DNA from: Oscillospiraceae bacterium
Lineage (GTDB): Bacteria; Bacillota; Clostridia; Oscillospirales; Oscillospiraceae
Assembly: GCA_031278515.1 (NCBI GenBank)
Contig: JAITKI010000033.1
Location: 1 to 39,596, forward strand
Direction: 5' to 3'
DNA length: 39,596 bases
In this document: positions 21,798 through 39,596 of the stretch, piece after piece
Layout of the letters: every line of letters begins with the position of its first letter
How positions within the stretch are numbered: the first letter of the stretch is position 1
Position numbers and translations under genes: made by a program
Notes under the pieces: model-generated
What the model was told of the DNA's origin: nothing
Databases searched by the model: none
What the model saw: only the letters and a program-made list of their open reading frames with translations

Positions 21798-21815
21798 ACG
21801 CGTTTATCCCTGAAA

Positions 21816-21860
21816 AATCATTTCGTTTGTGATGGCGAAGCCATCACAAACGAAATGATT
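21816..21860 (+). repeat. hairpin repeat copy 3: 45-nt perfect palindrome
   Basis: AATCATTTCGTTTGTGATGGC (21816-21836), loop GAA, GCCATCACAAACGAAATGATT (21840-21860). The 21-bp perfect stem lies between the divergent helicase and the three-gene operon. Confidence 0.9.
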
Positions 21861-21875
21861 CCCGAAAATTTATCC

Positions 21876-21905
21876 TTGACAGCCGCTCGCGCGGGGCGAT
21901 ATAAT
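21876..21905 (+). promoter_or_regulatory. consensus sigma-70 promoter (cassette copy 3) for the three-gene operon
   Basis: TTGACA (21876-21881), 18-nt spacer, TATAAT (21900-21905). The -35 starts 23 nt after ACAAACG. The operon ATG is at 21981. Confidence 0.6.
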
Positions 21906-21980
21906 TGCGGGAAATGTCTGAATATCCGGAGCTACACCTAATTATACGGCGTAACGCTGAATTATGAAAGAGGTTTTTTT

Positions 21981-22772
21981 ATGATCTATGAAGCGTTTTA
22001 CGACGACATCCTTTCCGTCGCGGAGGAACTGAAGGAACAATTGTCGTCCCAGCAAAAGCTTGTCAAGCGTCTGATGAAGTGTGTGGGAAACGGCGACCTG
22101 AAAGCCGCCGCGCGCGAACTCCCCGCCGCGAACGCGGCCGCCGACGTCTGCGCCCGTTCGATAGCCTCGATTACCGAAAAAATCGAGGCGGCCGACATGT
22201 TCGCCTATCTCCGGTCGGGGGACTTCGCGCGGCAGCTTGTCAACATGTGCCGCGAGTACGGAATTGACATCAAAGGCGAGGGAAATTCCTATGAGGTCTT
22301 CCCGTACCGCCTGAAAATCGATCCGCAGAACGCGGAGCTTCAAATCAACGGCAAAAAAGCGCTTGGTCTGCGTCCGCGCGCCGTGGTTGAGGACCTGCAA
22401 AAGAAGCGCGCGCACCTCCTGTCCGCCTCGTTCAACCCCGCGCAGTACGCCGCCGAGCTGTCGTCGGCCTATGATCTCGCGCTTCTCGCCGCGTCCAAGG
22501 GCAAAGCGTACGCGCCCGACGCCGACGTGCATCTCACCACGCTCCACAGGTATTTGACGCCGATGCGCCGTTTTCGGCGCGACTACGACCCGCAGAGCTT
22601 CGCGTTCGACATCGCCCGGCTGTACGACGCGGAGACGGACGCGCCCGTGGTAATCGGCGACGGTCGCCGCGTACATTTCGGGCCGGGCCGCGATAACAGC
22701 AAAGCGATACGCATCCTCGACGCGCTCGGGAGCGAGCGGTTCTTGTCAACCGTCCGGTTTTACAGGCCGTAA
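21981..22772 (+). CDS. hypothetical protein (operon gene A), no family recognised
   Basis: ATG 21981 with GAAAGAGG about 7 nt upstream. 263 aa with a predicted helical N-terminus (LSVAEELKEQLSSQQKLVKRLMK). The stop lies 3 nt before the gene B ATG. Confidence 0.75.
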   Translation: MIYEAFYDDILSVAEELKEQLSSQQKLVKRLMKCVGNGDLKAAARELPAANAAADVCARSIASITEKIEAADMFAYLRSGDFARQLVNMCREYGIDIKGEGNSYEVFPYRLKIDPQNAELQINGKKALGLRPRAVVEDLQKKRAHLLSASFNPAQYAAELSSAYDLALLAASKGKAYAPDADVHLTTLHRYLTPMRRFRRDYDPQSFAFDIARLYDAETDAPVVIGDGRRVHFGPGRDNSKAIRILDALGSERFLSTVRFYRP

Positions 22773-22775
22773 CTC

Positions 22776-23825
22776 ATGAGTACGACCGTGATTTCCGGAA
22801 TTTCCGATTCCGGGGAACCTGTCCGCATGACAGAGGGCCAGATGCCCGCCGACGTCGGTTTTATCACCGATTTTTGGCGGGAGCAATATCTGGAGCCGTA
22901 TATAACGCTGGGCGGGAGCAAGATAAAGTTCGTAGTCGGGAGCCCGGGCAGCGGCAAGAGCGGCTGTCTGCGCCGGTTCGCGTCGGACGCCGCGGCCCTC
23001 GGGTGCAAAACGGCGTCGCTCTCGGCAAAAAGCGTCTGGCTCAACGACTTTAAGGAGATATACGCCGCCGTGTTCGGCGCCGTGGATTTTCAGGGCTGTT
23101 TGATGAATTGCGCGCGCAAAATTGTGTCCGAGATGGGTCGGGACTACGACGAGATACCGGACGGCATCAGCTTCGCCGACTATCTGGCGTATCTCGGGAT
23201 GCTCGACCCTGTCACGCGTCTTGAACTGCGCGCCCAGATCAATTCGATGTTTTTCAAAAATCCGCGTATGGACAAGAACTTTGCCGTCTGCGCCGCCATG
23301 CTGACGGGCGGCATTCTGGGACATCCCACACTGGAGCAGTCGTCCCGCGAATTGCTGTGGTCGTGGCTCAAAGCCGAAAAGGGCGTGCGCGCGCCGACAA
23401 TCCGCAAGCTGGGGCTGGCGCCGTACAAAATAAGCAAGCACAACGCGCGCCACATGCTGAGATCGCTCATTGAGGTCGTCCGCCTCGCCGGGTACACGGC
23501 CCTCGTCGTCGGCGTCGACGATTTGGAGATCCTGACGGAGACGTCGTCGCTCGAGGAGATACGCTATACAAAGATGCGCCGCGAGGACGCCTACGAGAGC
23601 ATAAGAGAGCTTATCGACAGCATAGACACCCTGGATTATGTGATGTTTGTGTTCGCGTTCGGACGGGAGCTTCTCGACGACGAGGTCTGCGGCTTCAAAT
23701 CGTATCAGGCGCTTTGGATGCGGATACAAAACGAAATTACGGGCGGCAAGTTCAACAGGTTTTCGGATATCATTGACATGGATCGCCTCAGAGCGCCCGG
23801 CAGTCAGGAGACTTCACATGAATAG
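22776..23825 (+). CDS. P-loop ATPase, BrxD/DUF2791-like (operon gene B)
   Basis: Walker A GSPGSGKS (22938-22961) and Walker B-like ALVVGVDDLE. The context YLEPYITLGGSKIKFVVG resembles the BREX BrxC/BrxD ATP-binding family as I remember it. Confidence 0.75.
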   Translation: MSTTVISGISDSGEPVRMTEGQMPADVGFITDFWREQYLEPYITLGGSKIKFVVGSPGSGKSGCLRRFASDAAALGCKTASLSAKSVWLNDFKEIYAAVFGAVDFQGCLMNCARKIVSEMGRDYDEIPDGISFADYLAYLGMLDPVTRLELRAQINSMFFKNPRMDKNFAVCAAMLTGGILGHPTLEQSSRELLWSWLKAEKGVRAPTIRKLGLAPYKISKHNARHMLRSLIEVVRLAGYTALVVGVDDLEILTETSSLEEIRYTKMRREDAYESIRELIDSIDTLDYVMFVFAFGRELLDDEVCGFKSYQALWMRIQNEITGGKFNRFSDIIDMDRLRAPGSQETSHE

Positions 23826-25032
23826 AACGGACAGCTATAGTGCCAGAAATATTATAGAGGCGCTGCGCTCCGGCGTGTCCTCCCGCGAAGTGGGCTGCTG
23901 CTTCTCATCGGCGCGGCCCGGACTCACGCGCGAGATCCACAACGCGCTCACCGGCGTGGCGGAGGGCGGCGAGTCCGGCGGACGCATAATTACCGGGAAG
24001 TACGGCGAGGGCAAGACGCACCTGCTCAATACCGTATTCAACATGGCGCACGAGCGGAATATGGCGGTCAGCGCCGTTACGCTCAGCAAGGAAAGTCCGC
24101 TGTCGAATCTCGGCGTGCTGTATCCCAAGGTTCTGCAAGAGACGTATCTGCCCGGAAAAGTTCAGCCGGGTATTTCGGATATATTCGAAAGACTGTCGGC
24201 CGGAAGCCCCGCCGCGGCCGCTCTGCTGGAATACTGCCTTACGAAGCTTGAGTGCAACAAACTCTACTATGTGCTGAAATCTTACCTCGGAACGCAGAGC
24301 GATGAGGAAAAATACATGCTTTTAGGCGATATCGAGGGCGATTTTATGGCGAACGCGACGGTCAAACAGATCTACAAGCGCATCTACGGCGAGACGGTTG
24401 TATTCAACACCCCGTTCTCAAAAACGCGCCACGTGACCGACTATTTCGCGTTTGTGTCGCGTCTGTTTTTATCCGCGGGATACGACGGCTGGGTCATCCT
24501 CTTCGACGAGGCCGAGCTGATAGGGCGCATGAGCAAAAAAGCGCGGCAGTCCGCTTACGCCAATATGGCGGCGCTGCTGCGCCCGGACGCCATTGACCGC
24601 GCGTACTGCCTGTTTGCGTTCAACTCCTCGTACGTACCCGACGTCATAGAGTCGAAGCACGAGTACGCTATCGTTGAGGAGTCGCCGCTGCTCTCGCAGG
24701 AGCGCAAGAAGATTATATCCGGGGTATTGTCCGAAATCGCCTCCGCCGCGCAGCTTGTGCCGCTGGGCAAGGGGGAGATTCTTGAGATTCTGGAGAAAAT
24801 ACGCGACTATCACGGCCGGGCTTACGGATGGAGTCCAAAGCCCGACGCCGCGGACATCCTGGCGTTCACCGAAAAGCACGGCTACCTGCTCAGGACGCGC
24901 ATACGCACCGCCGTGGAACTGCTCGATCAATACTACCAGTACGGTTCAGCCGACGAGATAAGCGTGGGCGAGCTGGGACAGATGGAGTTCGATGAGGACG
25001 GCGATCCGCCGTCGCTCGACGCGTTTGTATAA
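23818..25032 (+). CDS. P-loop ATPase, BrxD/DUF2791-like (operon gene C)
   Basis: ORF 23647-25032 trimmed to ATG 23818 (GGAG 8 nt upstream), which overlaps the end of gene B by 8 nt. The N-terminus ARNIIEALRSGVSSREV is followed by Walker A GKYGEGKT (23995-24018) and Walker B VILFDEAE. Confidence 0.8.
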   Translation: MNRTDSYSARNIIEALRSGVSSREVGCCFSSARPGLTREIHNALTGVAEGGESGGRIITGKYGEGKTHLLNTVFNMAHERNMAVSAVTLSKESPLSNLGVLYPKVLQETYLPGKVQPGISDIFERLSAGSPAAAALLEYCLTKLECNKLYYVLKSYLGTQSDEEKYMLLGDIEGDFMANATVKQIYKRIYGETVVFNTPFSKTRHVTDYFAFVSRLFLSAGYDGWVILFDEAELIGRMSKKARQSAYANMAALLRPDAIDRAYCLFAFNSSYVPDVIESKHEYAIVEESPLLSQERKKIISGVLSEIASAAQLVPLGKGEILEILEKIRDYHGRAYGWSPKPDAADILAFTEKHGYLLRTRIRTAVELLDQYYQYGSADEISVGELGQMEFDEDGDPPSLDAFV

Positions 25033-25095: not shown

Positions 25096-28000
25096 CTATA
25101 TGCTCCTCGCCTCACGCAGCGCGGCATACAGCGCGGCGACGTCGATAGGTTTTGTCAGATGCTTCTCCATCCCCAGCGTCAGACAGCGCTCGCGCTCCTC
25201 CGGGAAGGCGTGCGCCGTCAGGGCGTATATCGGAATATCCGCGTATTCAGGCGTGTTTTTTATTATCCCGGTCGCCTCGTAGCCGTCCATCACCGGCATC
25301 TGCAGATCCATCAGTATGAGATCGAACGGCGGTTTTTCACGACCCGCCGCCGCCTCTCCGAGTATGCGCAGCGCCTCTTTCCCGTTTTCCACCGCCGTGA
25401 CCTCGACGCCCGCGGCCGACAGCACCTCCGTGACGATCATCGAGTTGATGTCGTTGTCCTCCGCGAGCAGCACGCGCATACCGCGAAGCGCCGCGTTTTC
25501 GCCGCTCACCTCGACCGGCTGCGGGACGGGGGGCGGTGTCTCCGGCGTCTGCGCGCGCAGCGGGAACGCGCAGTGGAACGAGAATACCGTACCCATGCCC
25601 GGTTGGCTGGATACGGAAATTTCCCCGCCCATCAGTTCCACCATCTGCTTTGTGATAGTCAGCCCGATGCCCGCGCCGCCGTACCGGCGGGCGGCGGAGT
25701 TGTCGGCTTGGTTGAATACGGCGAAAATGCCGTCGAGCTGTTCCTTGTCCATGCCTATACCGGTGTCCTCCACCGCGAAGAACGCCGTCACGCTGTCCTC
25801 CGCGCGCTTCATTACGGCCGCGCGCACCGTCACGACGCCTTTTTCCGTAAATTTATAGGCGTTTTCGATGAGATTTATGAATATCTGCTGCAGTCTCAGC
25901 GGGTCGCCGACGACGGTCTCCGGCAGCAACGGGTCTATCTCAAACCGAAGGGCGACGCCGCTCTTCGGCGTCTGGTCGCGGAAGAACACCTCCAGATCAC
26001 CGAGCAGACGCCGCAGCTCAAACGGCGTTTGCTCCAGTCTCATGCCGCCGGAGTCGGCCTTTGAGAAATCGAGCATGTCGTTTACAAGCCCGAGAAGCGT
26101 CGAGGCCGCGCGCCCCATCTTCTCCGCGTAGCCGCGCTGCTTTTCGTTCATAGGCGTGGCCATAAGCAGTTTTGTGAGACCGATTACCGCGTTAAGCGGC
26201 GTGCGGATCTCATGGCTGATATTTGCCAGGAACGACCGTTTCGCCTTGTTCGCCTCCATCGCCGCCAGCGTTGCGCCCTTCAGTTCGAGCAGCGTCCGCA
26301 CGCGCGCCACGAGTTCGTTCTTGTCAAACGGCTTTTGTATGTAGTCGTTCGCCCCGGATTGGAAACCCAGCACGACGTCCTGTATCCTGTTTTTTGCCGT
26401 CAGCATAATGATCGGCAGGTCAAACAGCGAATACTTCTCTCTCAACTGGCTGCAGACGTCATAGCCCGACTTTTTCGGCATCATCACGTCCAAAAGCACA
26501 AGATCGAATTCGCCGCCGCTCTCTATCATGTCGATGGCCTCCTGGCCTCCGTATGCTTTCGAGACGCCGTAGCCGCGCATTGTGAGGATGTTTGAGAGCA
26601 CCTGAATATTGACGGGCTCATCGTCCACAACGAGTATCCTGTATCCTCCCTGCGGCGCCGACTGCGGCGCCGTCTCGGACGGTGAGGATTCCGCCGCGAA
26701 GTTTTCGATATCAATGACGGAGCGCAGCTGCTCGCTCACCTCCGCCGCGCCCTCTCCCTTCGCGTCGTCGGCGCGCGGCAGGGTGAATGTAAATCTGGAA
26801 CCCTTCCCGAGCCTTGACTCGACGCCTATAGTCCCGCCGTGCAGTTCCACGATCTTTTTGGTGATAGATAATCCGAGCCCCGTGCCGCCGTACTCCCGCT
26901 CGGTTGAGCCGTCGCCCTGCTCAAACGATTCGAATATGCCGTCAAACTTATCCCCGGCGATGCCTATACCCGTATCGGATACGGATATGGCGGCCATTCC
27001 GTCGACAATGCCGGCGCTCACGGTCACGCTCCCTTTCTCGGTGAATTTGATCGCGTTGCCGACGAGATTGTAGAGTATCTGCTGAATCCTGTTTTCATCC
27101 GCATTCACCGCGGTAAACGAAGCGTCCACCTCGTTTACCAGTTTGAGATCCTTCCCCTTGGCAAGCGGCCTTGACAGCGCGATGACCGTATCGACCGCGG
27201 TTTTGAGATCGACCGGTTTCAGTTGAAGCTCTATCTCTTTGTTCTTGAGTTTTGTGAAATCCAGGATGTCGTTCACCAAATTAGAGAGGCGCTTACCGCT
27301 GTTGGCGACGAGCGCGAGGTTGTATTTCTGCTCGTCCGTCAGCGCGCCCGCCGCGCCGTCGATCATCGACTCCACGATTCCTATTATTCCGGTAATCGGC
27401 GTTCTGAGCTCATGCGACGTGTTTGCCAGAAACTCATCCTTAAGCTCGTTGAGCTTATTCAAATAGGTGTTTTTTTCCTCAAGCGTCTGCGCGTATCCGC
27501 GCAGTTTTGTTATGAGACGGTTTATTTCGCCGGCCATAAACGCGAACGCCCCGGACAGCGCGCCTATTTCGTCATTGCTCCGGAATACGGGCGCTTCGAC
27601 GTCGAAACGGCCCTCCCCCAGCAGCTTTGCCGTATCGGACAGTATGAGAATCGGCCGCGTTATACTGCGCGCTATTATATAGAGCACGACGGCTATGACG
27701 CATATGGCTATCAGCGATACGGCCAGGACGTAGTTACGGATACCGTTCGCGTTATCCAGTATTTTCGTCATGGGGATACTGACCGCCACCGACCACGGAT
27801 TCGTCACCTCGCTGAACCGGATCGGAGCGTACACCGTGTAGTAGTCCTCGCCGCTGAATATGTAAGTCTCTCCGTTTTTTATGGCCGCTTTCGCTTCACC
27901 GGCGTACGACGCCCGCGCGAGATCGTCAGCGAGATCCCCGCCCAGCCGCGGCGTCTCCGGATGCGCGACGACGACGCCCGCGTTCGAAAATATCTCCGTG

Positions 28001-28680
28001 TATCCGCCCTGCTCATGCGGATTGACCTTTGAGATCATCTCCTGCAGCTTATCGAGCACAATGTCCGACGAGATGATCCCGATAAACCCGTCTTTGTGTA
28101 TTATGGGAAATACAAAGCTGGCAAGCATAACGGTATTGCCCTGTACGTCATATGGGTACGGGTCTGTAATATACTCACAGCGCCCCGCCTTGGGCTCGAT
28201 ATACCAGTCGGAGATGTCGATGTCGTACAGCGGCTGCACCTCAATGTTGCCGTCGAGCTTATTCCAGTAAGGCGCGTATCGGCCCGTCTCGTCATACTCC
28301 GGCCCCATGCCGGCGTAGAAGTCGTCCAGCCCGTCCAGCGCGTCGGGGTCGTAGGCTATGCAAAACGCGGTTATGTACTCTTTTTCGGCGAGTGTGTTTC
28401 GCAGGATGTCGTTCATCATGTCCCTGTCGGTGAGTTCGTGATCCTTGAGCGTCTCAAACACCGTCGAAAGCGTCTCGGAGGTGATTCGCGCGCCCTGAAT
28501 TTCCGCCAATATCTCGTTTTTATACTTGTCCGCCGTCTCCTGCGCGAGACTGAAGGCGTCTTTTTTTGCCATTTCATACGACTTGCCCGAAACGATGACG
28601 GTGAGCGCGGAAAAAGCTACGATGACGACGAGCGCGACCGAGAAAAATATTTTTGCCCTGAGACTGAGATTTCCAAACAT
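25096..28680 (-). CDS. hybrid sensor histidine kinase with two kinase cores and two receiver domains
   Basis: Order: TM, Cache-like periplasmic region, TM, HAMP, H-box 1 SHELRTP (His codon 27412-27414), HATPase (DTGIGI...GGTGLGLSI), REC (ILVVDDEP...LLDVMMP), H-box 2 SHEIRTP (His codon 26212-26214), HATPase (DTGIGM...GGAGIGLTI), REC (VLLAEDND...LMDLQMP). ATG 28680 with a GAGGAG SD. Confidence 0.9.
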
Positions 28681-28959: not shown

Positions 28960-30871
28960 AACCTAAAACCCTGATAATAGTTACTCAAAACGCTATTGCC
29001 TGATGATGCCGAGCCTTGATAGGAATAAACGGTCGCGTTTAATTGTTTCTGTTTGCCATCTACATTTGCTCATGTTCGTGTAGACCGTTGTTTCTTCGAT
29101 GCAGTCAAACCAAGCAAACAACCGCTCAATCGACATGCTGTTTAACCAGTTGAGAAGCGCCTTTTCTTCCTTCAAATTTTGCTCGGTGTCATGTAACGGA
29201 TCGCCGTTTTTTATAGCAAGAGTCTTTTTTAAATTCGAGATTGCCTGATGCAGATATTCATGGTAACAAAGCGCGACGAACTGGCAAAAAAACCGGCCGC
29301 TCAGACTATCCGGATACCATACCCTTGTTCGATTGCCGTCGACATATTGCTTATCCATGCGGAAGTGTTCCTCTATCTTTTCCCTCCGTCGGTACTTCCG
29401 CAACGCATCCCAGACATCCAGCGGCGCATTGGAAACAAGGATAAAACAACCTGCAAAACGGGTCGCATCCTGAAATGCCTCCTCATTGTATGTGATAGAT
29501 AAACCGCCTCTGGTGTTTCTGATCATGAGATATTTGTCTGCAATTCGTCGCTCACCTTCAGATATTGGTTGTACTTCGGCTTTCAGATGTTCTTGGACTT
29601 TTCTGATATCATCAGCCAGGGAGGCCGTATCGCATTCGGCCTTGGCAGCGTTTCTGTACAAGTAAAGATATATCCGATGTTCTTCTGTTACCACATCCCC
29701 TTTCGAGATGTTACTGCGGCTGCGCTCTCTGACCCGCCGGAAATTATGTTGGGTCGCGATTGCCATTCCGTACACGCTCGGGTCAAAAGGACAGTGGTTG
29801 GACAACTGACTGATAGAATTCAATATCCCATCGAACTCAGACTTAATCCATGAAGCATTCAGCTTTCCAGCGACTAAAAACTTAATATGGCTGCGTATGA
29901 GTGTCAGCATATTGTCTTCGGAATAGAATCCTGCATCCATTACAAACATTGGCTTTTCCATACCGAAGACGGAGAGTTGCTTGCTGGCGTTGATAATAGA
30001 AATGACATCTGGTATATTTCCCGGTTGTCTCGCGTAAGCAATCGGCTGTCCTGTTTCCAAGCAATACTGCGTTAAAAGTTTCACGCTCTTTAGTCCGTCA
30101 TCGCTTTTATTATAGCCGTATCTTGCTTCGATCTGGTTCTCTGAATACGACGAGACGGTAGTTGAGTCAAATGCGATGGAAGACTTGGATGGCACACGGT
30201 CAGCTCTCGCACGGAAGAATTTCTGTTGCATGTCGGCATCCGTGCCGATCGCTTTCATCAAGGCATAACATCCGTCTTGAGATATGCCGTCCCGATAGGG
30301 GATATCGTGGTTTATCTGCCATTCTTCGATATAAGGGATGGTCTTGCCTGGGTTCGCATTCCAGTAGCGGGCAATTGAAAGAATTTTCTCGGCGGTCGTG
30401 CGATCGGTAGCGTGGAGAAGATCCTGATCAATGCCGGATTCGCGGCCAATCCATTCCAGGATGCAAGCAACGCCAATCCTCTTGCTTGATGCCAATTTCG
30501 GTACGGATGCTTTTGCCCTGCGGGGTCTCGTTGAAACCATTTCTGTCTTTCCAGCCGGAATTTTACCAACCAAATGACTGCTTATAACTTCATTGAAGCG
30601 TTTTTCGGGGTTGTATTTGGTCGTTCTCTCATAAATGTAAATATCTCCATTGCCGCGTTTGACATTGACTTGCCCGGTTTTTGGCTCTAACGAAGCTTTT
30701 TTTGGCATGATGTCCCTCCTGATTTGAGTTACTATATTATATAATAGTTACTCGAATAAATCAAGAGGGAAAATACCGTTAAATGCCGAAAATAAACCAT
30801 ATTTACTGACTAATGAAGTTGAAATATCCTTTGAGGTCGTTTTTGAGTGAGCATTGTCAGGGTTTTAGGTT
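28960..30871 (-). mobile_element. insertion sequence, IS4 superfamily (IS1634-like), about 1.9 kb
   Basis: Imperfect terminal inverted repeats: AACCTAAAACCCTGATAATAGTTACTCAAAACG (28960-28992) versus the reverse complement of 30838-30871, AACCTAAAACCCTGACAATGCTCACTCAAAAACG (first 15 nt identical). One transposase gene. Visibly more AT-rich than the flanks. No target-site duplication found. Confidence 0.85.
28993..30708 (-). CDS. DDE transposase (IS4/IS1634-like)
   Basis: ATG 30708 with an AGGAGGG SD. DDE candidates FDSTTVSSYS and VMDAGFYSEDN, plus the YREK-type signature YRRREKIEEHFRMDK. 571 aa. Confidence 0.85.
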   Translation of the reverse strand: MPKKASLEPKTGQVNVKRGNGDIYIYERTTKYNPEKRFNEVISSHLVGKIPAGKTEMVSTRPRRAKASVPKLASSKRIGVACILEWIGRESGIDQDLLHATDRTTAEKILSIARYWNANPGKTIPYIEEWQINHDIPYRDGISQDGCYALMKAIGTDADMQQKFFRARADRVPSKSSIAFDSTTVSSYSENQIEARYGYNKSDDGLKSVKLLTQYCLETGQPIAYARQPGNIPDVISIINASKQLSVFGMEKPMFVMDAGFYSEDNMLTLIRSHIKFLVAGKLNASWIKSEFDGILNSISQLSNHCPFDPSVYGMAIATQHNFRRVRERSRSNISKGDVVTEEHRIYLYLYRNAAKAECDTASLADDIRKVQEHLKAEVQPISEGERRIADKYLMIRNTRGGLSITYNEEAFQDATRFAGCFILVSNAPLDVWDALRKYRRREKIEEHFRMDKQYVDGNRTRVWYPDSLSGRFFCQFVALCYHEYLHQAISNLKKTLAIKNGDPLHDTEQNLKEEKALLNWLNSMSIERLFAWFDCIEETTVYTNMSKCRWQTETIKRDRLFLSRLGIIRQ

Positions 30872-32568
30872 TGAACGCCTACAATAGCGGCGGGTATCAG
30901 GGTGTCATAAATATCAGTAACGCGGCCAGTTCCGATCCGGCTACTAAAGCCGCGAGGAACGAGGCGTTAGTTAATCTCAATGCCGCGCGAAACGCGAAAC
31001 TCGCGGGTTCCGCGTCGCCTATCACGTGGGTTGGCGACGATGGGAAGACGTACACGGCTGAATCATACATGCTTAGTAATATCGGCGGAAGTTACGCTCC
31101 CGGTGGCGCGAGTTATTCGCCGACTTCGACGTTTACGAGTAATCTGCCCGCCGGCTTTGATAGCTCGGCGGGTTTGCAGAGTTCCGGCGCGTCGTCGCTG
31201 TCGTCGTCTCAATCGTCTCCGTACACGTATTCGGACGCTATCACGTATTACAGCAATAACGCAAACCAAAGCCAGATAGATAGTTTGAGGAGCGCTATTA
31301 ACAACTACAGGAGTTTTACGAGTACGCCGCAGCCGACGTGGGACGATGTGTACAAGGACGCGTACAACGCGGCGTTGAACGAGGTGCTTGGGCGGCAGGA
31401 GTTCAGTTATGATTTGAATACCGATCCGAATTATCAGGCGTACGCGCAGCAATATCTTATGGAGGGCGATAGGGCGACGCAGAATACTATAGCGCAGATG
31501 GCGGCGCTTTCGGGCGGTATGCCGTCGTCGGCGGCGGCCACGGCGGGCCAGCAGGCGGGCGATTACTACGCGGCGCAGCTCAGCGCCAAGGTTCCGGAGT
31601 TATACCAGCAAGCATATCAGCGGTATGTCGATGAGTTCAATATGGATCGTTCGGCGCTTGGCGATGTGTATAACGCGCGTAATTTCGATTACGGCATATA
31701 TCGCGACGATGTTGGCGATTATCAGGCGAACAGGGATTTTGACTACTCCGATTATCTCAATCAGTACGATATGCTTCAAAATTCGCTCAACAACTATGTC
31801 AACGCCGATGAGACGGCGTACGGCAGGTCACGCGACGCGATAGCGGACGCGCGGTACACCGATGAGACGGCGTACAACAGGGAGCGCGACGCGATAGCGG
31901 ACGCGCTGTACGCCGACGAGACGGCGTACAGCAGGTCACGCGACGCTTTAGGCGATACTCGGTATGAGACGGAGTACGCCGACGCGTTAAAGCAGCAGGA
32001 TTACGAGAATATGACGCAGGCGCAAAAGGACGCCTTTAACAGTGCGTGGGCGATGTTTGAGGCCGGTGTCATTAACGACAATGTGGCAAAGGCTTTAGGG
32101 TACGCGACGACGGCGCAGTTGCAGGCGGCGTATGACGCGGCTGTCAAGGCGGCAAAGTCGAGCGGTACGGGTACGGGTTCCGAAAAGGAGAGCGCGGACG
32201 TTTATGTCGAGGGGCGGGGGCCTGTGACGGCGGAGCAGCTTGCGTTAGGGTTGAAGAATGGCACTGTCAAGCAGGGTACGCGCAACGGGACGACGTATTA
32301 TTACGCGAGCGATGGGATTACGCCGATATCGCTGCCCGGCAGTTCCAGTTTCTACGGCGTGCCTGTGAACGAGCAGTACAAAATTATAGAGTCAACATAC
32401 GGTAAAGTTGTGCTTGACGCGATGCAAGCTGTCGGCAGGGTCATTAGCGGTACGAATGTTTCGGATAAGGTGAAGCAGCAGAGGGCCGAGGAGGCGTTGG
32501 CAAATTACGATCTGTCCGCCGAGGAGTATGCCGGTATACTCCAGGCGTATGGTCTTTCGTATAAGTAG
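30847..32568 (+). CDS. repeat-containing hypothetical protein (phage/ICE-like), 5' end probably displaced by the IS
   Basis: The frame has high third-position GC from the first base outside the IS (30872). The track's GTG start at 30847 lies inside the IS inverted repeat, so the native start is probably missing. The product is Ser/Ala/Tyr/Asp/Asn-rich with three 18-aa tandem repeats. Confidence 0.55.
   Translation: MSIVRVLGLNAYNSGGYQGVINISNAASSDPATKAARNEALVNLNAARNAKLAGSASPITWVGDDGKTYTAESYMLSNIGGSYAPGGASYSPTSTFTSNLPAGFDSSAGLQSSGASSLSSSQSSPYTYSDAITYYSNNANQSQIDSLRSAINNYRSFTSTPQPTWDDVYKDAYNAALNEVLGRQEFSYDLNTDPNYQAYAQQYLMEGDRATQNTIAQMAALSGGMPSSAAATAGQQAGDYYAAQLSAKVPELYQQAYQRYVDEFNMDRSALGDVYNARNFDYGIYRDDVGDYQANRDFDYSDYLNQYDMLQNSLNNYVNADETAYGRSRDAIADARYTDETAYNRERDAIADALYADETAYSRSRDALGDTRYETEYADALKQQDYENMTQAQKDAFNSAWAMFEAGVINDNVAKALGYATTAQLQAAYDAAVKAAKSSGTGTGSEKESADVYVEGRGPVTAEQLALGLKNGTVKQGTRNGTTYYYASDGITPISLPGSSSFYGVPVNEQYKIIESTYGKVVLDAMQAVGRVISGTNVSDKVKQQRAEEALANYDLSAEEYAGILQAYGLSYK
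31807..31968 (+). repeat. 3 x 54-bp in-frame tandem repeat
   Basis: Units at 31807-31860, 31861-31914 and 31915-31968 encode DETAYGRSRDAIADARYT / DETAYNRERDAIADALYA / DETAYSRSRDALGDTRYE. A partial fourth unit (TEYA) follows. Confidence 0.85.
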
Positions 32569-32588
32569 GGGCAAGGAGGTGCCGAGAA

Positions 32589-35500
32589 GTGGCTACCGCA
32601 ATTGACAGGATAATATCGTTGCGCGCGCGGAAAGCGTCGTCTGTGGGCGCGACTTCCGAGGCGGGCGCCGCGTGGGAGACGTCCGACGGGCGTGTGATTT
32701 CCGCGCCTACGCGCACACTTGCGCGGATTAAGGCGTTGCGGGAGTCCGGTACGGCGCGGTCGGCGGATGAGATTTTGCGCGAGGTACGCGAAGAGCAGGA
32801 GGCGGAGCGGACGGAGGCGGCGCGGGCGGCTGTTGAGGCGGCTGTGAAGGCGCGTAACGCGTCGCCGCTCGAGTCGTGGCTGCCGCGCGCTTCGACCGAC
32901 GAGGTCGCGCGGTACCATGAGCAGAAGCAGGAGCAAATTGACAAACTCCAATTCGCCGAGGCGGGTTTGCCGTTTCCGACGGGCGCTGACGCTGTGCGGG
33001 ATTACGCGGATTCTGAGTGGTCTGTGCTGCGTGAACGCGGCGCGGCGCGGAAGTACAACGCGAATCGCGCGGAGTACGATAAGTTGGCGGCTTTGCCCGC
33101 GACTCCGGCAAACGCCGCCAAGATGGCGCTTCTCAACGCGGATATGGAGGGGTATATCCGCTACGGGGATAATAAGAACGAGTATACCGAGCGGAAGAGC
33201 GCGTATGATAAGGGTTTGGATGATACGCGCGCCAGACTTGCGGAGTTGAAGGATACTGATTGGCAGGAATATGAGCGGCTGCTTAGAGAGACAAAGGAAA
33301 AGACGCCGCGGTACAACGCCGAGAAACAGTCGCTGGATGAGTTTTCATCTTCCCGGCAGAAGTCGGAGCGCGCGGCATACGCGGAGGCTTTGAAGATTGA
33401 GGATGAGCAATATCGTTTGAGGGCCGATTCCGGCTCAAAGGCGTACAAGAGTACCGTAAAGCTCGGGCAGGCGGAGGCGGAGCGTATCGCGGGTTTTACG
33501 GCAGACGAGACTACGGCGGCGACGGGAGATAAGTCGTCGCCTTTGACGTATACACAGCAACGTATCGTAAACAGAATCGTTCATGGGGCTTCCGCCGCTA
33601 AGCCTGTGTCGTACGAGCCCGGGTACGTCGATGTTACGGGTAAGGATTATTATGGGAAGTACGATTATCTGTCCGATAATGAGAAGACTGATTTCTATTA
33701 TTATCTCGGCAAGGGCGATACAGATGGCGCGTTTCGGTATCTCGGTATGCTCGGGACGACGCTCGAGGCGCGTGAGACGGGGAAGTACAAGGAGGATTTG
33801 AGCGCGGCGGCGAAGGAGGATCCCGCGGGGGGCGCGTTTTTGCAGTTTATGGCGAATTTCGCAACGCCGGGTGATTTGCTTGCTATGGGCGGCGAGGCGT
33901 TGGCGAACGCTGTCAGGGGCGACGCCAAGTACGAACCGGCGCGCCCGTCGAGTTCCGCGTATAGGGCGTCACAGAGTGTGTCGGCGCTGGGGCAGGGCGT
34001 CGAGGCGCGTATAAGGGAGGGTCTTGACGATACTAAGCCTGTGTTTCTCGGTATGACAATGGCGGATTTGGCGGGTCAGGGGTATCAGCTCGCGCAGTCT
34101 ATTGCGCAGTCCGGCGCGAATATGGCGCTGTTTGGGCCGGCGAGCATTTACGTGATGGGCGCTCAGGCGGCGGGTAACGCGGCGTACAACGCGGCGGAGC
34201 GCGGGTTGGCTCCGGATCAGGCGTTTTTGCTCGGACTCGGGAGCGGCGTCGTTGAGGCTGTCACGGAGAAGGTGTCTGTCGATCGTTTCTTCAAGCTGTT
34301 GGAGCAGGGTAAAAAGTTGAGCGCGAAACAGATGCTTTTGCAGATTGCGCAGCAAATGGTGGCGGAGGGCAGTGAGGAGGTCGTCGCTGAAGAGCTTAAC
34401 AATTTGGTCGATATTTTTGTTGCGGGCGACGCTTCGGAGTACGCGCGTTACAAGGCCGGGCTTGTCGAGAGCGGTATGAGCGAGTCCGAGGCGGAGAAGT
34501 CGGCTATGCTGCAATACTTCGTAAAGAACGCGGCGGTGGCCGGTATTGGGGGCGCTGTTTCCGGCGGTTTGTTCGGCGGCGCGGGCGCTGTGGGGAATAA
34601 CGCGCGAGTCGCCGCCTATGAGCGCGCCGTACAGGGCGCACAGGCTGCGCAGGGTGGTATAGTGCCGCAGGGTGGTACAGTGCCGCAGGGGCGGGAAAAT
34701 TCGCTTCCCGCGGCGATACAGGGCGATACGGCGCGGGGTAACGCGGCGAGGCCGGATGTGGCCGGTCTGATTCAGTCCGGGCCGAATCTGAGCAGACAGG
34801 AGGCTGCGGCTGCCGCGCTTGCGTCGGGCGATACTGATGTCAACGCAATCTTTCCGGCGGCGCGGAACGCCGGTTACAATCAGGGCGAGAGAGAGGGCGC
34901 GGCTGCGGATGGCGTGACTGCGGACGGCGATGTCTCAAATTTGTCGAGTCCGTGGGATTTGACGGCTGCCGATGTGACGGAACTTTTCGACGCTTACGAG
35001 GTTGCGCGGGAGGATAGGCCGGACGCGCAGAGGGCTGCGGATATTATCAACAAGGTGCAGCTGGGCGAGCAGTTGGGCGAGGCCGAGGTGATGCTGCTCG
35101 TCGAGTATCCGGAGTTTGCGTCTATCGCGGCGGAGTATGAGAGTTCAGAGCTTGGCGGGCGCGGTTTGGCGGATAGTGCGGCGCGGCAGGGCGACGCGGG
35201 ACAGGTTGTGACGGCGCGGGACAGTACGGGACAGGTCAATACGCAATCGGCGGCTCAGGCGGGTCAGGCGCAAGGCGCGTCGGTTTCCGGTGTAATCGGA
35301 CTAAATGGGGAGGTTTCAGGTAATGGCGAACAGGGCGGAGCGCAACAGCGAGGCGAGATACTTGATAGAGGATACGGACGGGTTTCTGATGAGTCTGACG
35401 GAGTCGCAGTTGAAAATGTATCGGGAGAACAAGGGCAAGACTATCCTGCCGAGGTCAGACGAGCGGCAGATAATAGACGAAATCTTTTACCAAATCAGGG

Positions 35501-38500
35501 GGCGTTATCCCCAAGGGTAAGTCCGGAGTCTCTCGGTATTACGGGCGGTTTCGGATACGGGTCGCTGCTGGAGCTGCCTAAATCCGTTTGGGACGAGGGT
35601 TTGAGCGCGTCGGCAAACGAGGTGAGACGGACTACGGGCGGCAATGTGCGGTTCGTGCTGGGTAAAATTCAGGTGCGGGGCGCGGGCAGTACTCGCGGTG
35701 TTCTGCTCGCCAATGGCGATATGGTTGTTCAGGCGGACGATTTGGGCGCGACGGCGGAGCAGGTTACGCGTCATGAGTTGTTTCACGCTTTGAATAAGGC
35801 CTCCGGTTCCGTATTGGTCGAGGCTATACGCGCCGAAATCAACAGGATGTTTCCTGATGATTCGTCGCTCCGGGGCGCTATTGAGACGTACTATAAGCAT
35901 TACATGAAGGCGCTCGCGGGTCATGGGTTGGCTCGCGAGCAGATTGAGTCGTATATCCTGGAGGAGATTTTCGCGGACGCTTACGCGGGTATAAACGCGT
36001 TCGGCGTCGATACGTCGCGTTGGTCTGAGATCTCCGCGCGATACGCCAACGCTGCCGCCGACCGGGCGGCCTCGGCGCGGTCGCAGACGGAGGCCGCTAC
36101 CGCCAGAACTACCGGGCCGCCGGATGTGACGCGGTTCAGCGTCAATCCGGATTTCGCGCAGGAAATTGATGAGTGGGACGGACGAGCGAACACGACATTT
36201 ACTGTCGGGAGTACTTCTGACGCGCTTAAAAGTATAGGTGTCGCCGACCGCGGTATAGTCTGGCATGGGCAAAAAATCGCGGAGATATTGCGCAAGCACG
36301 ACGGAATGAGCCGCGATATTATCAAGCAAGTGCCGAATATGCTTGAACGTCCTGTAGTCGTCGTAAAGTCGCGCAACAGCGACAGTCGTATTGTTATTTT
36401 CGGAGAAGTATACGACCGCAAGGGAAGCCCTGTTACTGCCATACTGGAGCTTATGCCGACTTCGCGCGGCGGCGAGCTGCTTGATATGAATGTCGTCGTC
36501 AGCGCTTACGGTAAGGACTCAAACGCGGCGTCTTTCATAAGAAACAGCGATCTCTTGTATCTTGATCCGGATAAAAATAGAACCGAAGCTTGGTTGAGCG
36601 CCGTTGGGCTCCAATTGCCCTCAGTTGCGTTCAACAAGTTCGGCTCTGTGGGGTCTGTGTCGTATATTGACGGTAAAGTCAAAATTGACGGCGTCCCCTT
36701 TACACGTAATATACCCGATTCCAAGGCAAAAAGCAATAGGAATTCCGCAAATAATCAAAGTCAGTCGGATAGTACAACAAAAGTTGAAGATTTTACAAAA
36801 GATGATATCACGCCGGAGGCTATCGAGAGCAATCGGGACGCGCTGCAAAAGTATTCCATAGCGTTCCACGGTTCGCCTTACAGCTTCGATGAGTTCCTGC
36901 TTGACCATATCGGTTCCGGTGAGGGCGCTCAGGCGCACGGCTGGGGGCTGTACTTTGCGGCGGACGAAAAGCTTGCCGCGAAGTACAAGGACGTGTTGAG
37001 CGAGAGGCGGCGCAACAAGTTCATTGTTGACGGTAAGCAGTTTACCGGCGTACAGCTGTACGATGAGTTCGCCGTTGACAGTCCTGAATACATAGGCTCT
37101 CACGCGCTCAAGGACGCGAACGGCGACGTTTCCGGGGCTGTGAAGTTTCTGCGTGGCGTTATCGCCGATTTGGAGCGAAACGAGCCTGTCGCGCCTGCGT
37201 CAGTGTACAGGAACGCCACTGTGGAGGCGGCGAACGAGGCGATTGCGGCGATTTCAGACGGACGCGTGTCATACGACTCGACGCCTGCTCCCGGCGCGCT
37301 GTACACCGTGGATATTCCGGACGAGGATGTCATGCTCCGGGAGGATGGGACGCTTTGGGATCAGCCGGATTTCATACAAGACTTGCTTGAAGAGGAGTTC
37401 GACGAGGCTTCTTACATCGATAACGCCACGGGGCGCGATGTGTATTTGCGGCTTTCCGACGAGTACGGGAAGCGCGGGGCGTCGGAGTGGCTTAACGAGC
37501 GCGGCATAAAGGGTATTGTGTACGGCGGTCGGCGCGACGGTAAGGCTTATGTGGTGTTCGATGACAAGGCGATTAAGATTCTTGATAAGGCGGCGGAGGT
37601 CGTCTCCGGGGGCGCGGAGCAGAGGTTTAGTATCGGAGAGGCCGAGGACGGTACGCGGTTCGTCGAGGTGGATACGGATCAGCATTTGTTTGACGGCGCG
37701 GCAATAAGTGATTACCCGAAAATTGCAAGGCGGTACATACGGGCGAGGTTTCGGGGTATCCCGCTTCAAGTTGGTACAAACGGAACCGCTCGTGTCTCAA
37801 ACCGTTCCGCCGGAGAATACGCGCATAGCGCGCGACCGTATAAAGCGCGCGCGGCAACGGAACTTGACAATTTATTAAAAGTATCCAAATACTCACATTC
37901 CGCGCCGGACGAAAGCGGACGGAAATTTGCTTCGGACGGCTGGGAGTACCGGGCTGTAAAATTCCGAGTTGACGGCGTAATGTTTGAAGGGCTGATAAAC
38001 ATCGCAAAATCTCCGAATGGCGCGCTTTTCTACGATATGACAAACATAGAGCCTTCCGCCCTAAACGGTCAGACGAAAAACTCGTCCTCCGCCTCCCTGA
38101 TGGCGAAAAGCTCTGTTGCCAATAATATATCCAACTCCGGCGCAAAAAGCAATAGGAATTCCGCAAAAAATCAAAGTCAGTCGGATAGTACAATAAAAGT
38201 TGAAGATTTTACAAAATTCAGTCTGTCGGAGCCGATTGAGGCGACGCGTGACCTAATCGCGGTACATAACCTGTCCGTTGGGCAGTTGAATGAGAGTATT
38301 CGGCTGGGCGGCTTCGCTATGCCGAGCATAGCCGTAACGACGTCGGAGATGGAACACGACAGATACGGTGATGTTACGGTGCTGTTCGGCAGGGATACGA
38401 TAGACCCCAAGCGGAGCCGGAACAACAGGGTGTACAGCGGGGACGCGTGGACGCCGAGTTTTCCGGAGACGGGGTATAAGGCGAATTCGGCTGTTGTGAG

Positions 38501-39596
38501 AAACGCGCGGAGTATCCGCAATCGGCTCCTGGAAAAGTATGGGCTGGCTTACGGGGATTTACCGGTGTTTGACGCGAGCGAAGTTGAAAGCGACCTGCGG
38601 CGGTCAAACGGCAATTTGTCCGAATTCTATGCGCATAGCAATAAAATGAGATTGATGTACGCGCTCGACAAGGGCCTTGCCCAACCGATATACAAGGCAA
38701 AAGATTACGGCGTGGCTGTTCCCGTGGAGTTCTTTCCCGCGTTGGTTGAAGCGGTCGGAGAGGCGCGTATAACAGAGGCGGCGTCCGGTTCTTCCGATTT
38801 GACGCGGGCGCTTGCGCCTGTTATTACGGAGACGGTAAACGCGTTGTCGCGGGATGAGTACGGCGCGGAGTTGTTCAAAAAAGAAATACCGTTCAGTCAA
38901 TTAGACCATGTTGTGGACGGTCTTGCTAAATACATCCGCAATGGTTCGGAGCGGGAGCTTGATGTCTACGCGACTCGCGACGCCGTTGACGCCGCGATGA
39001 AGGACGACGGCGGGTATACCCGGTGGCTTGACGGGCTGTTCGACGGCATTGTTGAAAAGCGCGGCATACGCAACAGCAAGGACTTCTTTACCAACTCCGG
39101 TAACAGGCGCGGTTTTGAGGCGCTGTACGACGAGATAACGCTTGACAACATTTTGAAGGCGATGCGGAAAGAAATGCCCAAGGGGGGCGGCTCTTGGCTC
39201 GGGACAAACGGCGTTCGCGCCTCGGCGTCGCGCGAGTTTAAGAGCGTCGATGAGATACGCGGCGCTGCGGGACAGCTTAGGCGGTTAAGCGAAGCGGAAT
39301 ACAGCGCGGCGAAGGACGCGGTCGATGGGCGTATAATGGGCGTAATAAATGAGATGGTCGGCGAAAGCGAAAGTTTCAGCGCGACGGACGCCGCCGCCGA
39401 AGTTCTTACCGGCGCTGTCGCCCGGAGCGTTGAACCCGGCGCGATATATAACTATGTGAGGCGCGAGTGGGGCGAGAGCTTTACGCCGGAGCTTGCGCGG
39501 GAGTTGTCCGAAGCGGCAAAAGAGGCGCGGGAGCTTCCGACCGAGTACTTTGAGGCGAAGCCGAGGCGCATAGTGGGCTTTGACGAGGTTCGCGCG
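32589..39596 (+). CDS. giant multi-module (polyvalent-type) protein, partial; at least 2336 codons with a zincin HExxH module
   Basis: My manual translation found no stop in the frame with codon starts at multiples of 3, from the TAA at 32562-32564 to the window end. SD AAGGAGG (32573-32579) lies 9 nt before GTG 32589. It is missing from the ORF track because there is no stop in the window. HELFH is at 35772-35786. Several conserved-looking modules are separated by low-complexity linkers. See the finding on the frame anomaly at 35290-35520. Confidence 0.75.
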   Translation, partial: MATAIDRIISLRARKASSVGATSEAGAAWETSDGRVISAPTRTLARIKALRESGTARSADEILREVREEQEAERTEAARAAVEAAVKARNASPLESWLPRASTDEVARYHEQKQEQIDKLQFAEAGLPFPTGADAVRDYADSEWSVLRERGAARKYNANRAEYDKLAALPATPANAAKMALLNADMEGYIRYGDNKNEYTERKSAYDKGLDDTRARLAELKDTDWQEYERLLRETKEKTPRYNAEKQSLDEFSSSRQKSERAAYAEALKIEDEQYRLRADSGSKAYKSTVKLGQAEAERIAGFTADETTAATGDKSSPLTYTQQRIVNRIVHGASAAKPVSYEPGYVDVTGKDYYGKYDYLSDNEKTDFYYYLGKGDTDGAFRYLGMLGTTLEARETGKYKEDLSAAAKEDPAGGAFLQFMANFATPGDLLAMGGEALANAVRGDAKYEPARPSSSAYRASQSVSALGQGVEARIREGLDDTKPVFLGMTMADLAGQGYQLAQSIAQSGANMALFGPASIYVMGAQAAGNAAYNAAERGLAPDQAFLLGLGSGVVEAVTEKVSVDRFFKLLEQGKKLSAKQMLLQIAQQMVAEGSEEVVAEELNNLVDIFVAGDASEYARYKAGLVESGMSESEAEKSAMLQYFVKNAAVAGIGGAVSGGLFGGAGAVGNNARVAAYERAVQGAQAAQGGIVPQGGTVPQGRENSLPAAIQGDTARGNAARPDVAGLIQSGPNLSRQEAAAAALASGDTDVNAIFPAARNAGYNQGEREGAAADGVTADGDVSNLSSPWDLTAADVTELFDAYEVAREDRPDAQRAADIINKVQLGEQLGEAEVMLLVEYPEFASIAAEYESSELGGRGLADSAARQGDAGQVVTARDSTGQVNTQSAAQAGQAQGASVSGVIGLNGEVSGNGEQGGAQQRGEILDRGYGRVSDESDGVAVENVSGEQGQDYPAEVRRAADNRRNLLPNQGALSPRVSPESLGITGGFGYGSLLELPKSVWDEGLSASANEVRRTTGGNVRFVLGKIQVRGAGSTRGVLLANGDMVVQADDLGATAEQVTRHELFHALNKASGSVLVEAIRAEINRMFPDDSSLRGAIETYYKHYMKALAGHGLAREQIESYILEEIFADAYAGINAFGVDTSRWSEISARYANAAADRAASARSQTEAATARTTGPPDVTRFSVNPDFAQEIDEWDGRANTTFTVGSTSDALKSIGVADRGIVWHGQKIAEILRKHDGMSRDIIKQVPNMLERPVVVVKSRNSDSRIVIFGEVYDRKGSPVTAILELMPTSRGGELLDMNVVVSAYGKDSNAASFIRNSDLLYLDPDKNRTEAWLSAVGLQLPSVAFNKFGSVGSVSYIDGKVKIDGVPFTRNIPDSKAKSNRNSANNQSQSDSTTKVEDFTKDDITPEAIESNRDALQKYSIAFHGSPYSFDEFLLDHIGSGEGAQAHGWGLYFAADEKLAAKYKDVLSERRRNKFIVDGKQFTGVQLYDEFAVDSPEYIGSHALKDANGDVSGAVKFLRGVIADLERNEPVAPASVYRNATVEAANEAIAAISDGRVSYDSTPAPGALYTVDIPDEDVMLREDGTLWDQPDFIQDLLEEEFDEASYIDNATGRDVYLRLSDEYGKRGASEWLNERGIKGIVYGGRRDGKAYVVFDDKAIKILDKAAEVVSGGAEQRFSIGEAEDGTRFVEVDTDQHLFDGAAISDYPKIARRYIRARFRGIPLQVGTNGTARVSNRSAGEYAHSARPYKARAATELDNLLKVSKYSHSAPDESGRKFASDGWEYRAVKFRVDGVMFEGLINIAKSPNGALFYDMTNIEPSALNGQTKNSSSASLMAKSSVANNISNSGAKSNRNSAKNQSQSDSTIKVEDFTKFSLSEPIEATRDLIAVHNLSVGQLNESIRLGGFAMPSIAVTTSEMEHDRYGDVTVLFGRDTIDPKRSRNNRVYSGDAWTPSFPETGYKANSAVVRNARSIRNRLLEKYGLAYGDLPVFDASEVESDLRRSNGNLSEFYAHSNKMRLMYALDKGLAQPIYKAKDYGVAVPVEFFPALVEAVGEARITEAASGSSDLTRALAPVITETVNALSRDEYGAELFKKEIPFSQLDHVVDGLAKYIRNGSERELDVYATRDAVDAAMKDDGGYTRWLDGLFDGIVEKRGIRNSKDFFTNSGNRRGFEALYDEITLDNILKAMRKEMPKGGGSWLGTNGVRASASREFKSVDEIRGAAGQLRRLSEAEYSAAKDAVDGRIMGVINEMVGESESFSATDAAAEVLTGAVARSVEPGAIYNYVRREWGESFTPELARELSEAAKEARELPTEYFEAKPRRIVGFDEVRA
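35323..35520 (+). CDS. 65-aa ORF in an alternative frame inside the giant ORF
   Basis: GGGGAGG (35307-35313) lies 9 nt before ATG 35323. It reads MANRAERNSEARYLIEDTDGFLMSLTESQLKMYRENKGKTILPRSDERQIIDEIFYQIRGRYPQG and is bounded by TAA at 35302-35304 and 35518-35520. By hand count about 74% of its codons end in G/C, against about 37% for the giant-ORF frame over the same stretch. Confidence 0.45.
   Translation: MANRAERNSEARYLIEDTDGFLMSLTESQLKMYRENKGKTILPRSDERQIIDEIFYQIRGRYPQG
36726..36800 (+). repeat. 75-bp dispersed direct repeat, copy 1 (linker inside the giant ORF)
   Basis: GCAAAAAGCAATAGGAATTCCGCAAATAATCAAAGTCAGTCGGATAGTACAACAAAAGTTGAAGATTTTACAAAA is 73/75 identical to 38142-38216. It encodes AKSNRNSANNQSQSDSTTKVEDFTK. 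Confidence 0.9.
38142..38216 (+). repeat. 75-bp dispersed direct repeat, copy 2
   Basis: Same sequence as 36726-36800 with 2 substitutions. It encodes AKSNRNSAKNQSQSDSTIKVEDFTK. Both copies are AT-rich compared with the surrounding ORF. Confidence 0.9.

Follow-up and report, generated by a model that had tools for sequence, protein, structure and literature searches.

A giant gene cut by the end of an Oscillospiraceae contig probably encodes a phage-type polyvalent protein

Polyvalent proteins carry several (2-15) conflict-related domains on a single polypeptide, with a metallopeptidase (MPTase) as the hub domain (Iyer et al. 2017, PMC5512222). They are regarded as the earliest-acting of all phage proteins in a newly infected cell, and almost none has been studied experimentally. 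Among the closest described systems are the following two. In the Stx phage phi24B, proteomics of virions recovered the 2811-amino-acid (aa) polyvalent protein gp47, for which a role as an encapsidated ejection protein was proposed (bioRxiv 10.64898/2026.04.10.717836). In the Clostridium clostridioforme prophages LM41 phi1 and phi4, an 8-kb 3′-terminal open reading frame (ORF) with similarity to LPD3 makes up ~20% of the genome (PMC11318856); these ORFs were noted there but not dissected. Here we describe a giant ORF on contig JAITKI010000033.1 of the Oscillospiraceae bacterium assembly GCA_031278515.1. The window analysed is the entire contig sequence of 39,596 bases. We interpret the ORF, with a probability of roughly 0.8, as the 5′ two-thirds of the gene for a giant (probably 3300-4500 aa) phage-type polyvalent protein from a phage that is temperate, probably short-tailed and integrated in the genome of an Oscillospiraceae bacterium. 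Its dissection adds the architecture of such a protein from a prophage of an uncultured gut member of this family.

The protein is a well-supported but ordinary member of the described class. As in the phage-type proteins of Iyer et al. 2017, more than 2000 aa hold a zincin MPTase hub together with MuF-C, H-Y-D ADP-ribosyltransferase (ART), probable LPD3 and PBECR domains in a mosaic architecture, and the gene is encoded among virion genes (the latter seen in four relatives). By description, it is also like phi24B gp47 in being giant, in combining MuF-C with LPD domains and in its probable source, a short-tailed temperate phage, but the cargo of gp47 differs (LPD5, LPD1, LPD38), as does the host, E. 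coli. The sole E. coli phage match, PhiR5_2, covered the MuF_C region only, at ~30% identity. The likeness to LM41 phi1 and phi4, again compared by description, lies in a gut Clostridia prophage with a huge ORF at the genome end, a position also seen in the four relatives' loci. Unlike its counterparts, the protein has an exact domain order that was found in none of the relatives retrieved, the best of which was 36% identical over 28% of the query; the closest N-terminal relatives are 46-54% identical. It also extends beyond Iyer et al. 2017 in having an N-terminal module (N-module) without a Pfam family, and a module-initial motif and repeated linkers that are not discussed in PMC5512222, where the word 'linker' occurs 0 times.

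The frame from GTG 32589 on the forward strand was free of stops to the window end at 39596, a translation of 2336 codons, for which the chance expectation from base composition is ~4e-35. A preliminary description of this DNA had reported both the 7008-nucleotide (nt) open frame and a strong Shine-Dalgarno sequence 9 nt before the GTG, and both were borne out. It had also called the ORF invisible in the program-made ORF track; the ORF is indeed unlisted, but the cause is trivial, as the list omits ORFs running off an end. The predicted N-terminus, MATAIDRIISLRAR, is similar to MATAAEMIARYRAQ, the start of relatives P0032 and P0039, which supports GTG 32589 as the start. Since the window is the whole contig, the stop codon is not recoverable from this assembly. 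The last 499 aa were scanned against genome, viral and metagenome contigs as a means of extending the ORF; no relative was found in these, nor was the stop. The last residues, YFEAKPRRIVGFDEVRA, align within 46 relatives, in which a further 968-2136 residues follow (median 1412). The full-length protein is probably ~3300-4500 aa, with the 5′ two-thirds of the gene probably contained in the window. Modules were delimited by BLAST against 88 giant relatives (2200-3960 aa), and the features of the gene are as follows.

32573..32579, forward strand: Shine-Dalgarno sequence AAGGAGG, read off the sequence, 9 nt before the GTG.
32589..39596, forward strand: giant ORF for a predicted phage-type polyvalent protein, 3′ end cut by the contig end (translation, Pfam).
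32589..33620, forward strand: aa 1-344, low-complexity N-terminus, charged and Ala-rich (BLAST against relatives, composition).
33621..34688, forward strand: aa 345-700, conserved all-helical N-module (alignment, exhaustive HMMER search, AlphaFold2 (AF2) model).
34689..35465, forward strand: aa 701-959, Ala/Gly/Gln-rich linker, mostly unique (BLAST against relatives).
35466..36131, forward strand: aa 960-1181, zincin-like metallopeptidase, MPTase (motifs conserved in relatives).
36132..36704, forward strand: aa 1182-1372, MuF_C module with a PBECR-type RNase fold, starting RFSV (Pfam).
36849..37622, forward strand: aa 1421-1678, ART-PolyVal ADP-ribosyltransferase module, starting KYSI (homologues, triad, structure matches).
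37623..38120, forward strand: aa 1679-1844, LPD3 module, starting RFSI (Pfam below cut-off, homologous relatives).
38214..39596, forward strand: aa 1876-2336, PBECR5 predicted RNase with a conserved extension, starting KFSL (Pfam, PHROG).

MPTase, MuF_C, ART-PolyVal, LPD3 and PBECR5 all lie in the one uninterrupted frame of 2336 codons. A profile check on the polyvalent families placed PBECR5 and MuF_C above the Pfam cut-offs and LPD3 and ART-PolyVal below them. PBECR5 (PF18814) matched aa 1875-2122 with E = 7e-44 and 150.9 bits against a cut-off of 25. Residues H1893-N1894, PSIA 1912-1915, D1952, T1955 and YFEAKP.R 2320-2327 are invariant in 21 non-redundant relatives, and the contig end cuts the module ~55 aa short of its end in relatives. 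PHROG 22978, a 3513-position profile of giant phage proteins whose function is unannotated, matches aa 1742-2334 (E = 4e-100), a match confined to the query's LPD3-PBECR5 part; relative P0003 matches the same profile along most of its C-terminal region. MuF_C (PF18819) matched aa 1231-1331 (E = 8e-17 to 4e-18, 61.6-66 bits against a cut-off of 27.6), as the preliminary description had supposed in likening this stretch to the C-terminal domain of MuF. Within the module, which is 56% identical to P0009, conservation reaches at least 80% at H1237 and Y1307, and at least 90% at S1305. A fusion to the MuF/SPP1 gp7 head-morphogenesis domain (a MuF polymorphic toxin) was rejected, as a search of all 2336 aa at E <= 1-5 gave no match to Phage_Mu_F (PF04233) and only MuF_C is present. 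The LPD3 profile (PF18798) aligned over positions 8-114 of 114 to aa 1711-1815 and scored 19.1-23.4 bits, below the cut-off of 27; P0002, P0060 and P0064, all of which have a precomputed LPD3 assignment, contain segments homologous to this region. A search against NCBIfam gave no useful match. The MuF_C and LPD3 modules have a GC content of 0.51-0.53 (0.55-0.57 at third codon positions, GC3), compared with 0.58-0.62 (GC3 0.66-0.72) in neighbouring modules, consistent with cassettes from lower-GC phages.

The reading of VTRHELFHAL as a zincin motif was likewise upheld, the HExxH being conserved together with a downstream Glu. HELFH (aa 1062-1066, 35772-35786) is conserved in the alignment with relatives, as is EEIFADAYAG (aa 1125-1134, 35961-35990), which contains the candidate third zinc ligand. 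The MPTase module had no Pfam match and no sequence match in the PDB, and as no Pfam model matches, the assignment rests on motif and context. All other motif coordinates of the preliminary description were also exact (FHGSP from 36864, WEYRAVKF from 37941, AVHNLS at 38259, SAYGKD ending at 36518). Upstream of the MPTase, aa 152-344 are common to P0210 only (46% identity across aa 152-688), and within the linker of aa 701-959 only aa 789-850 are shared, again with P0210 (56% identity).

The ART module falls below its own Pfam cut-off (PF18760 ART-PolyVal, 18.3-25.9 bits against 31.2, profile positions 9-46 of 140 only), and in the AF2 model (pLDDT 86) the domain is split by a helical insertion of ~150 aa. 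Its 558 homologues mostly have a precomputed PF18760 assignment. Every one of 47 aligned sequences keeps H1427, a GEGAQA loop, Y1455, Y1466, Y1645 and F1657; conservation at D1658/D1659 is at least 90%. The triad of the ART-PolyVal clade (Tox-ART-HYD2) consists of a His in strand 1, a Tyr in strand 2 and an Asp in strand 5 (PMC5512222), and the catalytic candidates here are H1427, Y1455 and D1658/D1659. A structure search of the model against BFVD gave 32 significant matches, with E down to 1.4e-17 and many named ART-PolyVal. Foldseek against the PDB gave no significant match; the list consists mostly of ART catalytic domains, and its top entry is a weak match (E = 0.086) to a cyanophage A4 pre-ejectosome chain (9k3a). 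Because of the Pfam assignments of the homologues, the conserved H-Y-D triad and the BFVD matches, we accept the module as a divergent member of ART-PolyVal with a helical insertion. Annotations on plasmids had offered a non-ART 'LPD23' domain as another candidate. This was rejected, as LPD23-bearing relatives do not overlap the region and the structural matches are to ART-PolyVal.

The N-module is a genuine domain, as judged by its conservation. An exhaustive HMMER search recovered it in at least 1704 representative clusters at E <= 1e-3 (819 at E <= 1e-10), nearly always 100-500 aa from the N-terminus and in proteins of 1700-4100 aa. A helical N-terminal domain that is conserved but belongs to no family is thus a hallmark of giant proteins of this kind in well over a thousand clusters. 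The alignment shows S504, G539, E556, E560 and D608 to be invariant and EGSEE 593-597 nearly so, with a Gly-zipper-like stretch at 644-669. The AF2 model is all-helical with moderate confidence (pLDDT 66). There was no Pfam match, and neither a PDB profile search nor Foldseek on this moderate-confidence model gave a meaningful match; a word-indexed search with the N-terminal 720 aa returned nothing, low-complexity words having swamped the candidates. Part of the domain had been described as a Gly/Ala-rich hydrophobic segment. It is Gly-rich, but only weakly hydrophobic, with a lone KD19 peak of 1.42 at aa 648-669. A transmembrane block was rejected on the basis of this single weak peak, the segment belonging instead to the ~350-aa helical domain. 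From its constant place near the N-terminus, a role in scaffolding or packaging may be proposed.

The genomic setting was taken from four relatives' loci (L001-L004). In these the giant gene, which encodes 2400-4000 aa in relatives, comes after a run of virion genes (capsid, the phrog_511 'internal virion protein', tail protein, collagen-like tail fibres); behind it lie holin and endolysin genes or the end of the prophage. The ~40-kb contigs also encode integrase, repressors, SSB and RusA at other positions. No genes of a type IV secretion system (T4SS) were seen in the four loci, and no tail-tube or tape-measure genes were recognised in them. The phages of these relatives are probably temperate and short-tailed, as judged from gene content. 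Because the relatives sit between tail-fibre genes and holin/endolysin genes, with no T4SS seen, a phage is favoured over an integrative and conjugative element (ICE), and the data support a phage-type rather than an ICE-type polyvalent protein. The earlier polyvalent-type interpretation is accordingly supported by the profile matches and narrowed to the phage type, and the choice between phage and ICE, for which the neighbouring genes had been proposed as a check, is resolved for phage from the relatives' loci. By analogy, the protein may be compared with T7 gp14-16, N4 vRNAP and the A4 pre-ejectosome (9k3a), all of them large, kept within the capsid until they are ejected together with the DNA, and encoded after the tail genes. 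Unlike these podovirus ejection proteins, it shows no significant sequence or structural similarity to them and contains no RNA polymerase or lytic transglycosylase in the available part.

A closer inspection of the module starts revealed a common tetrapeptide. The pattern [RK][FY][SQ][LIVM] occurs 4 times in the 2336 aa (at 1182, 1421, 1679 and 1876), where 0.42 are expected (P = 0.004), and 76 times in 45 non-redundant relatives, where 25.4 are expected; with a motif defined post hoc, the figures can be no more than indicative. All 4 of the 4 occurrences are the starts of cargo modules (MuF_C, ART, LPD3 and PBECR5) and take the form [RK][FY]S[LIV]. In relatives the motif stands before five unrelated module types, namely MuF_C, PBECR5, LPD3, ART-PolyVal and the C-terminal region. 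Autoprocessing by the MPTase has been proposed by Iyer et al. 2017 (PMC5512222), and the tetrapeptide may mark the processing sites. That the same tetrapeptide opens every cargo module gives a testable proposal for the cutting; if such a processing code is true, mature effectors would be predictable from sequence and the engineering of phage-delivered payloads would be helped.

A direct-repeat search identified a second feature of the module boundaries, an AT-rich repeat of 94 nt.

36707..36800, forward strand: linker repeat copy 1, 94 nt, GC 0.34, encoding …KAKSNRNSANNQSQSDSTTKVEDFTK (direct-repeat search).
38123..38216, forward strand: linker repeat copy 2, 94 nt, GC 0.32, encoding …GAKSNRNSAKNQSQSDSTIKVEDFTK (direct-repeat search).

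The two copies are 91% identical, lie 1416 nt apart and bracket the ART and LPD3 block; their GC content of 0.32-0.34 compares with 0.51-0.62 for the modules. Natural variants among the relatives differ in the same way. P0007 and P0011 are 99.7-99.9% identical save for one ART cassette, which is placed between duplicated linkers, and P0010 and P0014 show the same pattern, with one cassette present or absent between duplicated linkers. As read from these pairs of sequences, this demonstrates that the gain or loss of cassettes at repeated linkers occurs in nature, and we infer that the AT-rich linkers are recombination joints. Variants that differ by exactly one cassette between AT-rich linkers also make the exchange of cargo a testable proposal. 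The linker as a joint common to other phages was a separate candidate, which was rejected: one 25-mer had 0 matches, and the 3 matches of a 21-mer, all in an unrelated 277-aa gene, were put down to chance.

Relatives also vary beyond the point at which the window ends. P0003 and P0005 have their first ~1700 aa in common but differ in C-terminal type, so that even the C-terminal region appears to be exchanged. Differing C-terminal types each contain one moderately hydrophobic helix, as in P0003 (~aa 2728), P0017 (~2013), P0009 (~2518), P0032 (~2791), P0002 (~2324) and P0016 (~3106). In several relatives the helix is followed by an acidic DDDKD-like motif. This segment is missing from the window.

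Taken together, these observations are consistent with the following scheme. The giant protein would be made late, packed inside the capsid and ejected into the next host along with the DNA; for packaging in the virion, the one precedent on which we draw is phi24B gp47. The helical N-module, plus the C-terminal region conserved in relatives, would serve as the virion and ejection scaffold. The variable middle would carry the effectors, namely the predicted RNases MuF_C and PBECR5, the H-Y-D ADP-ribosyltransferase and the LPD3 domain, which would target RNA and proteins of the host at an early stage of infection, in the service of takeover or counter-defence. The zincin would release separate units from the polyprotein, a possible cleavage site being the [RK][FY]S[LIV] that opens every cargo module, and cargo cassettes would be exchanged by recombination at the repeated AT-rich linkers. 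A broader proposal is that all N-module proteins (at least 1704 clusters) form one superfamily of encapsidated 'cargo-train' ejection proteins, in which the [RK][FY]S[LIV] tag is an in-cis zincin cleavage site that frees the effectors and the AT-rich linkers are dedicated cassette-swapping joints. We regard this generalisation as rather unlikely to hold in full; if true, it would amount to a delivery chassis that is programmable and whose processing follows a defined code.

Upstream of the giant gene, the window contains the following two features.

28960..30871, reverse strand: insertion sequence (IS) element with a DDE_Tnp_1 transposase (Pfam, inverted-repeat search).
30872..32568, forward strand: upstream phage gene, rich in Ala, Ser, Tyr, Gly and Asp (homology to L002).

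The upstream gene matches the gene directly 5′ of the giant gene in prophage L002 (E = 2e-14; 39% identity across 105 aa). It encodes an 18-aa repeat, DETAYxRxRDA(I/L)xDxxY, three times in succession, the copies starting at 31807, 31861 and 31915. It had no Pfam, PHROG or NCBIfam match. Its 5′ end abuts the IS, and the nominal start of its ORF (GTG 30847) falls inside the IS end. The IS encodes a transposase of 571 aa (28993-30708) and has intact terminal inverted repeats of 31 nt, with a GC content of ~0.46 against 0.58 for the window; no target-site duplication was found on checking its ends. No identical protein was found for the product of the upstream gene, for the transposase or for the histidine kinase beyond it. 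The IS lies 1.7 kb upstream of the giant gene and separates the host chromosome, which ends here in the histidine-kinase gene, from the phage genes. Because the IS interrupts the locus, only this one conserved upstream phage gene remains beside the giant gene in the window. The lack of a target-site duplication and the absence of the usual structural genes point to a prophage remnant or a chimeric contig.

Three other explanations were weighed against a phage-encoded ejection protein. Delivery by a T4SS from a conjugative element, whether an ICE or a plasmid, would account for the domain content, as polyvalent proteins occur in both kinds of element, with MPTase and ART domains common to both (PMC5512222), and the ART module does weakly match large proteins on Pseudomonas megaplasmids. 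These plasmid matches, however, span just 11% of the query and are on non-mobilizable plasmids, whilst neither the window nor the four relatives' loci, all with phage structural and lysis modules, contain genes for a T4SS, a relaxase or ArdC-N. The match to PHROG 22978 also speaks against it, and an ICE origin, which was rejected on gene context, is highly improbable. A different role within a phage would be that of a tape-measure protein with acquired effector domains in a long-tailed siphovirus, a tail ruler as opposed to an ejection protein. The great length, the largely helical N-module and the Gly-rich hydrophobic stretch would fit such a protein, as would a gene position late in the structural module just before the lysis genes, and relative P0016 ends in Peptidase_M23, as some tape-measure proteins do. 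Yet no genes for a tail tube, tail chaperone, Dit or Tal were recognised in the relatives, in which the capsid gene is instead followed at once by those for the phrog_511 internal virion protein, a tail protein and tail fibres, and the query had no tape-measure match in Pfam or PHROG. A tape-measure protein sets ~0.15 nm of tail per residue, such that a ruler of at least 3000 aa would mean a tail several times longer than that of any typical siphovirus. Moreover, globular enzymatic cassettes vary between near-identical phages, which a ruler would hardly tolerate. We consider this reading improbable.

The third explanation concerns the state of this copy and leaves the identity of the protein unchanged. 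The locus could be a decaying remnant left by an IS-mediated deletion, or an assembly artefact in which host and phage were joined through a repeated IS, in either case with no present function. The position and ends of the IS described above fit this, as does the annotated start of the upstream phage ORF inside the IS end, and none of the at least 10 structural genes found upstream in relatives is present in the window. On the other hand, a 7-kb intact frame with conserved catalytic residues means that any disruption would be recent. We regard a remnant or artefact as a serious possibility, somewhat short of an even chance. Further points weigh against the ejection-protein reading itself. The gene is incomplete, the rest of the prophage is absent and the IS has no target-site duplication, so it may be a non-functional remnant or part of a chimeric contig. 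The packaging, ejection and cleavage of this protein and its close relatives are argued by analogy. The scaffold role of the N-module, which has no structural or functional match, is a guess from position and conservation, and the short-tailed morphology is weakly indicated by missing recognisable tail-tube and tape-measure genes. The LPD3 match and the query's own ART-PolyVal match are below the Pfam cut-offs. Lastly, the boundary motif was defined after viewing the sequences, and a few of its occurrences are internal to domains.

The remainder of the window, 1-28.7 kb, is ordinary chromosome. It encodes MutL, alanine racemase, a MerR regulator, DnaG, FtsW, tRNA-Pro, a deaminase, ArgG, Fe-ADH, a helicase, BrxD-like ATPases and a hybrid histidine kinase; ArgG shares 83% identity with its counterpart in an Oscillospiraceae metagenome-assembled genome. 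Long ORFs overlap on both strands at 1636-4397 (1660-3396 forward, 1636-2838 and 2712-4397 reverse; GC 63%), of which the forward ORF 1660-3396 had no Pfam or PADLOC match. The region 20106-25032 is a possible defence island. Its helicase matches the helicase part of PADLOC PbeA (E = 6e-55), and it also contains a 263-aa protein without a match and two adjacent BrxD/SngB-like ATPase ORFs whose frames overlap at 23647-23825. The hybrid histidine kinase at 25096-28680 on the reverse strand is 1194 aa long; its domains are dCache, HAMP and, in two copies each, HisKA, HATPase_c and a receiver domain.

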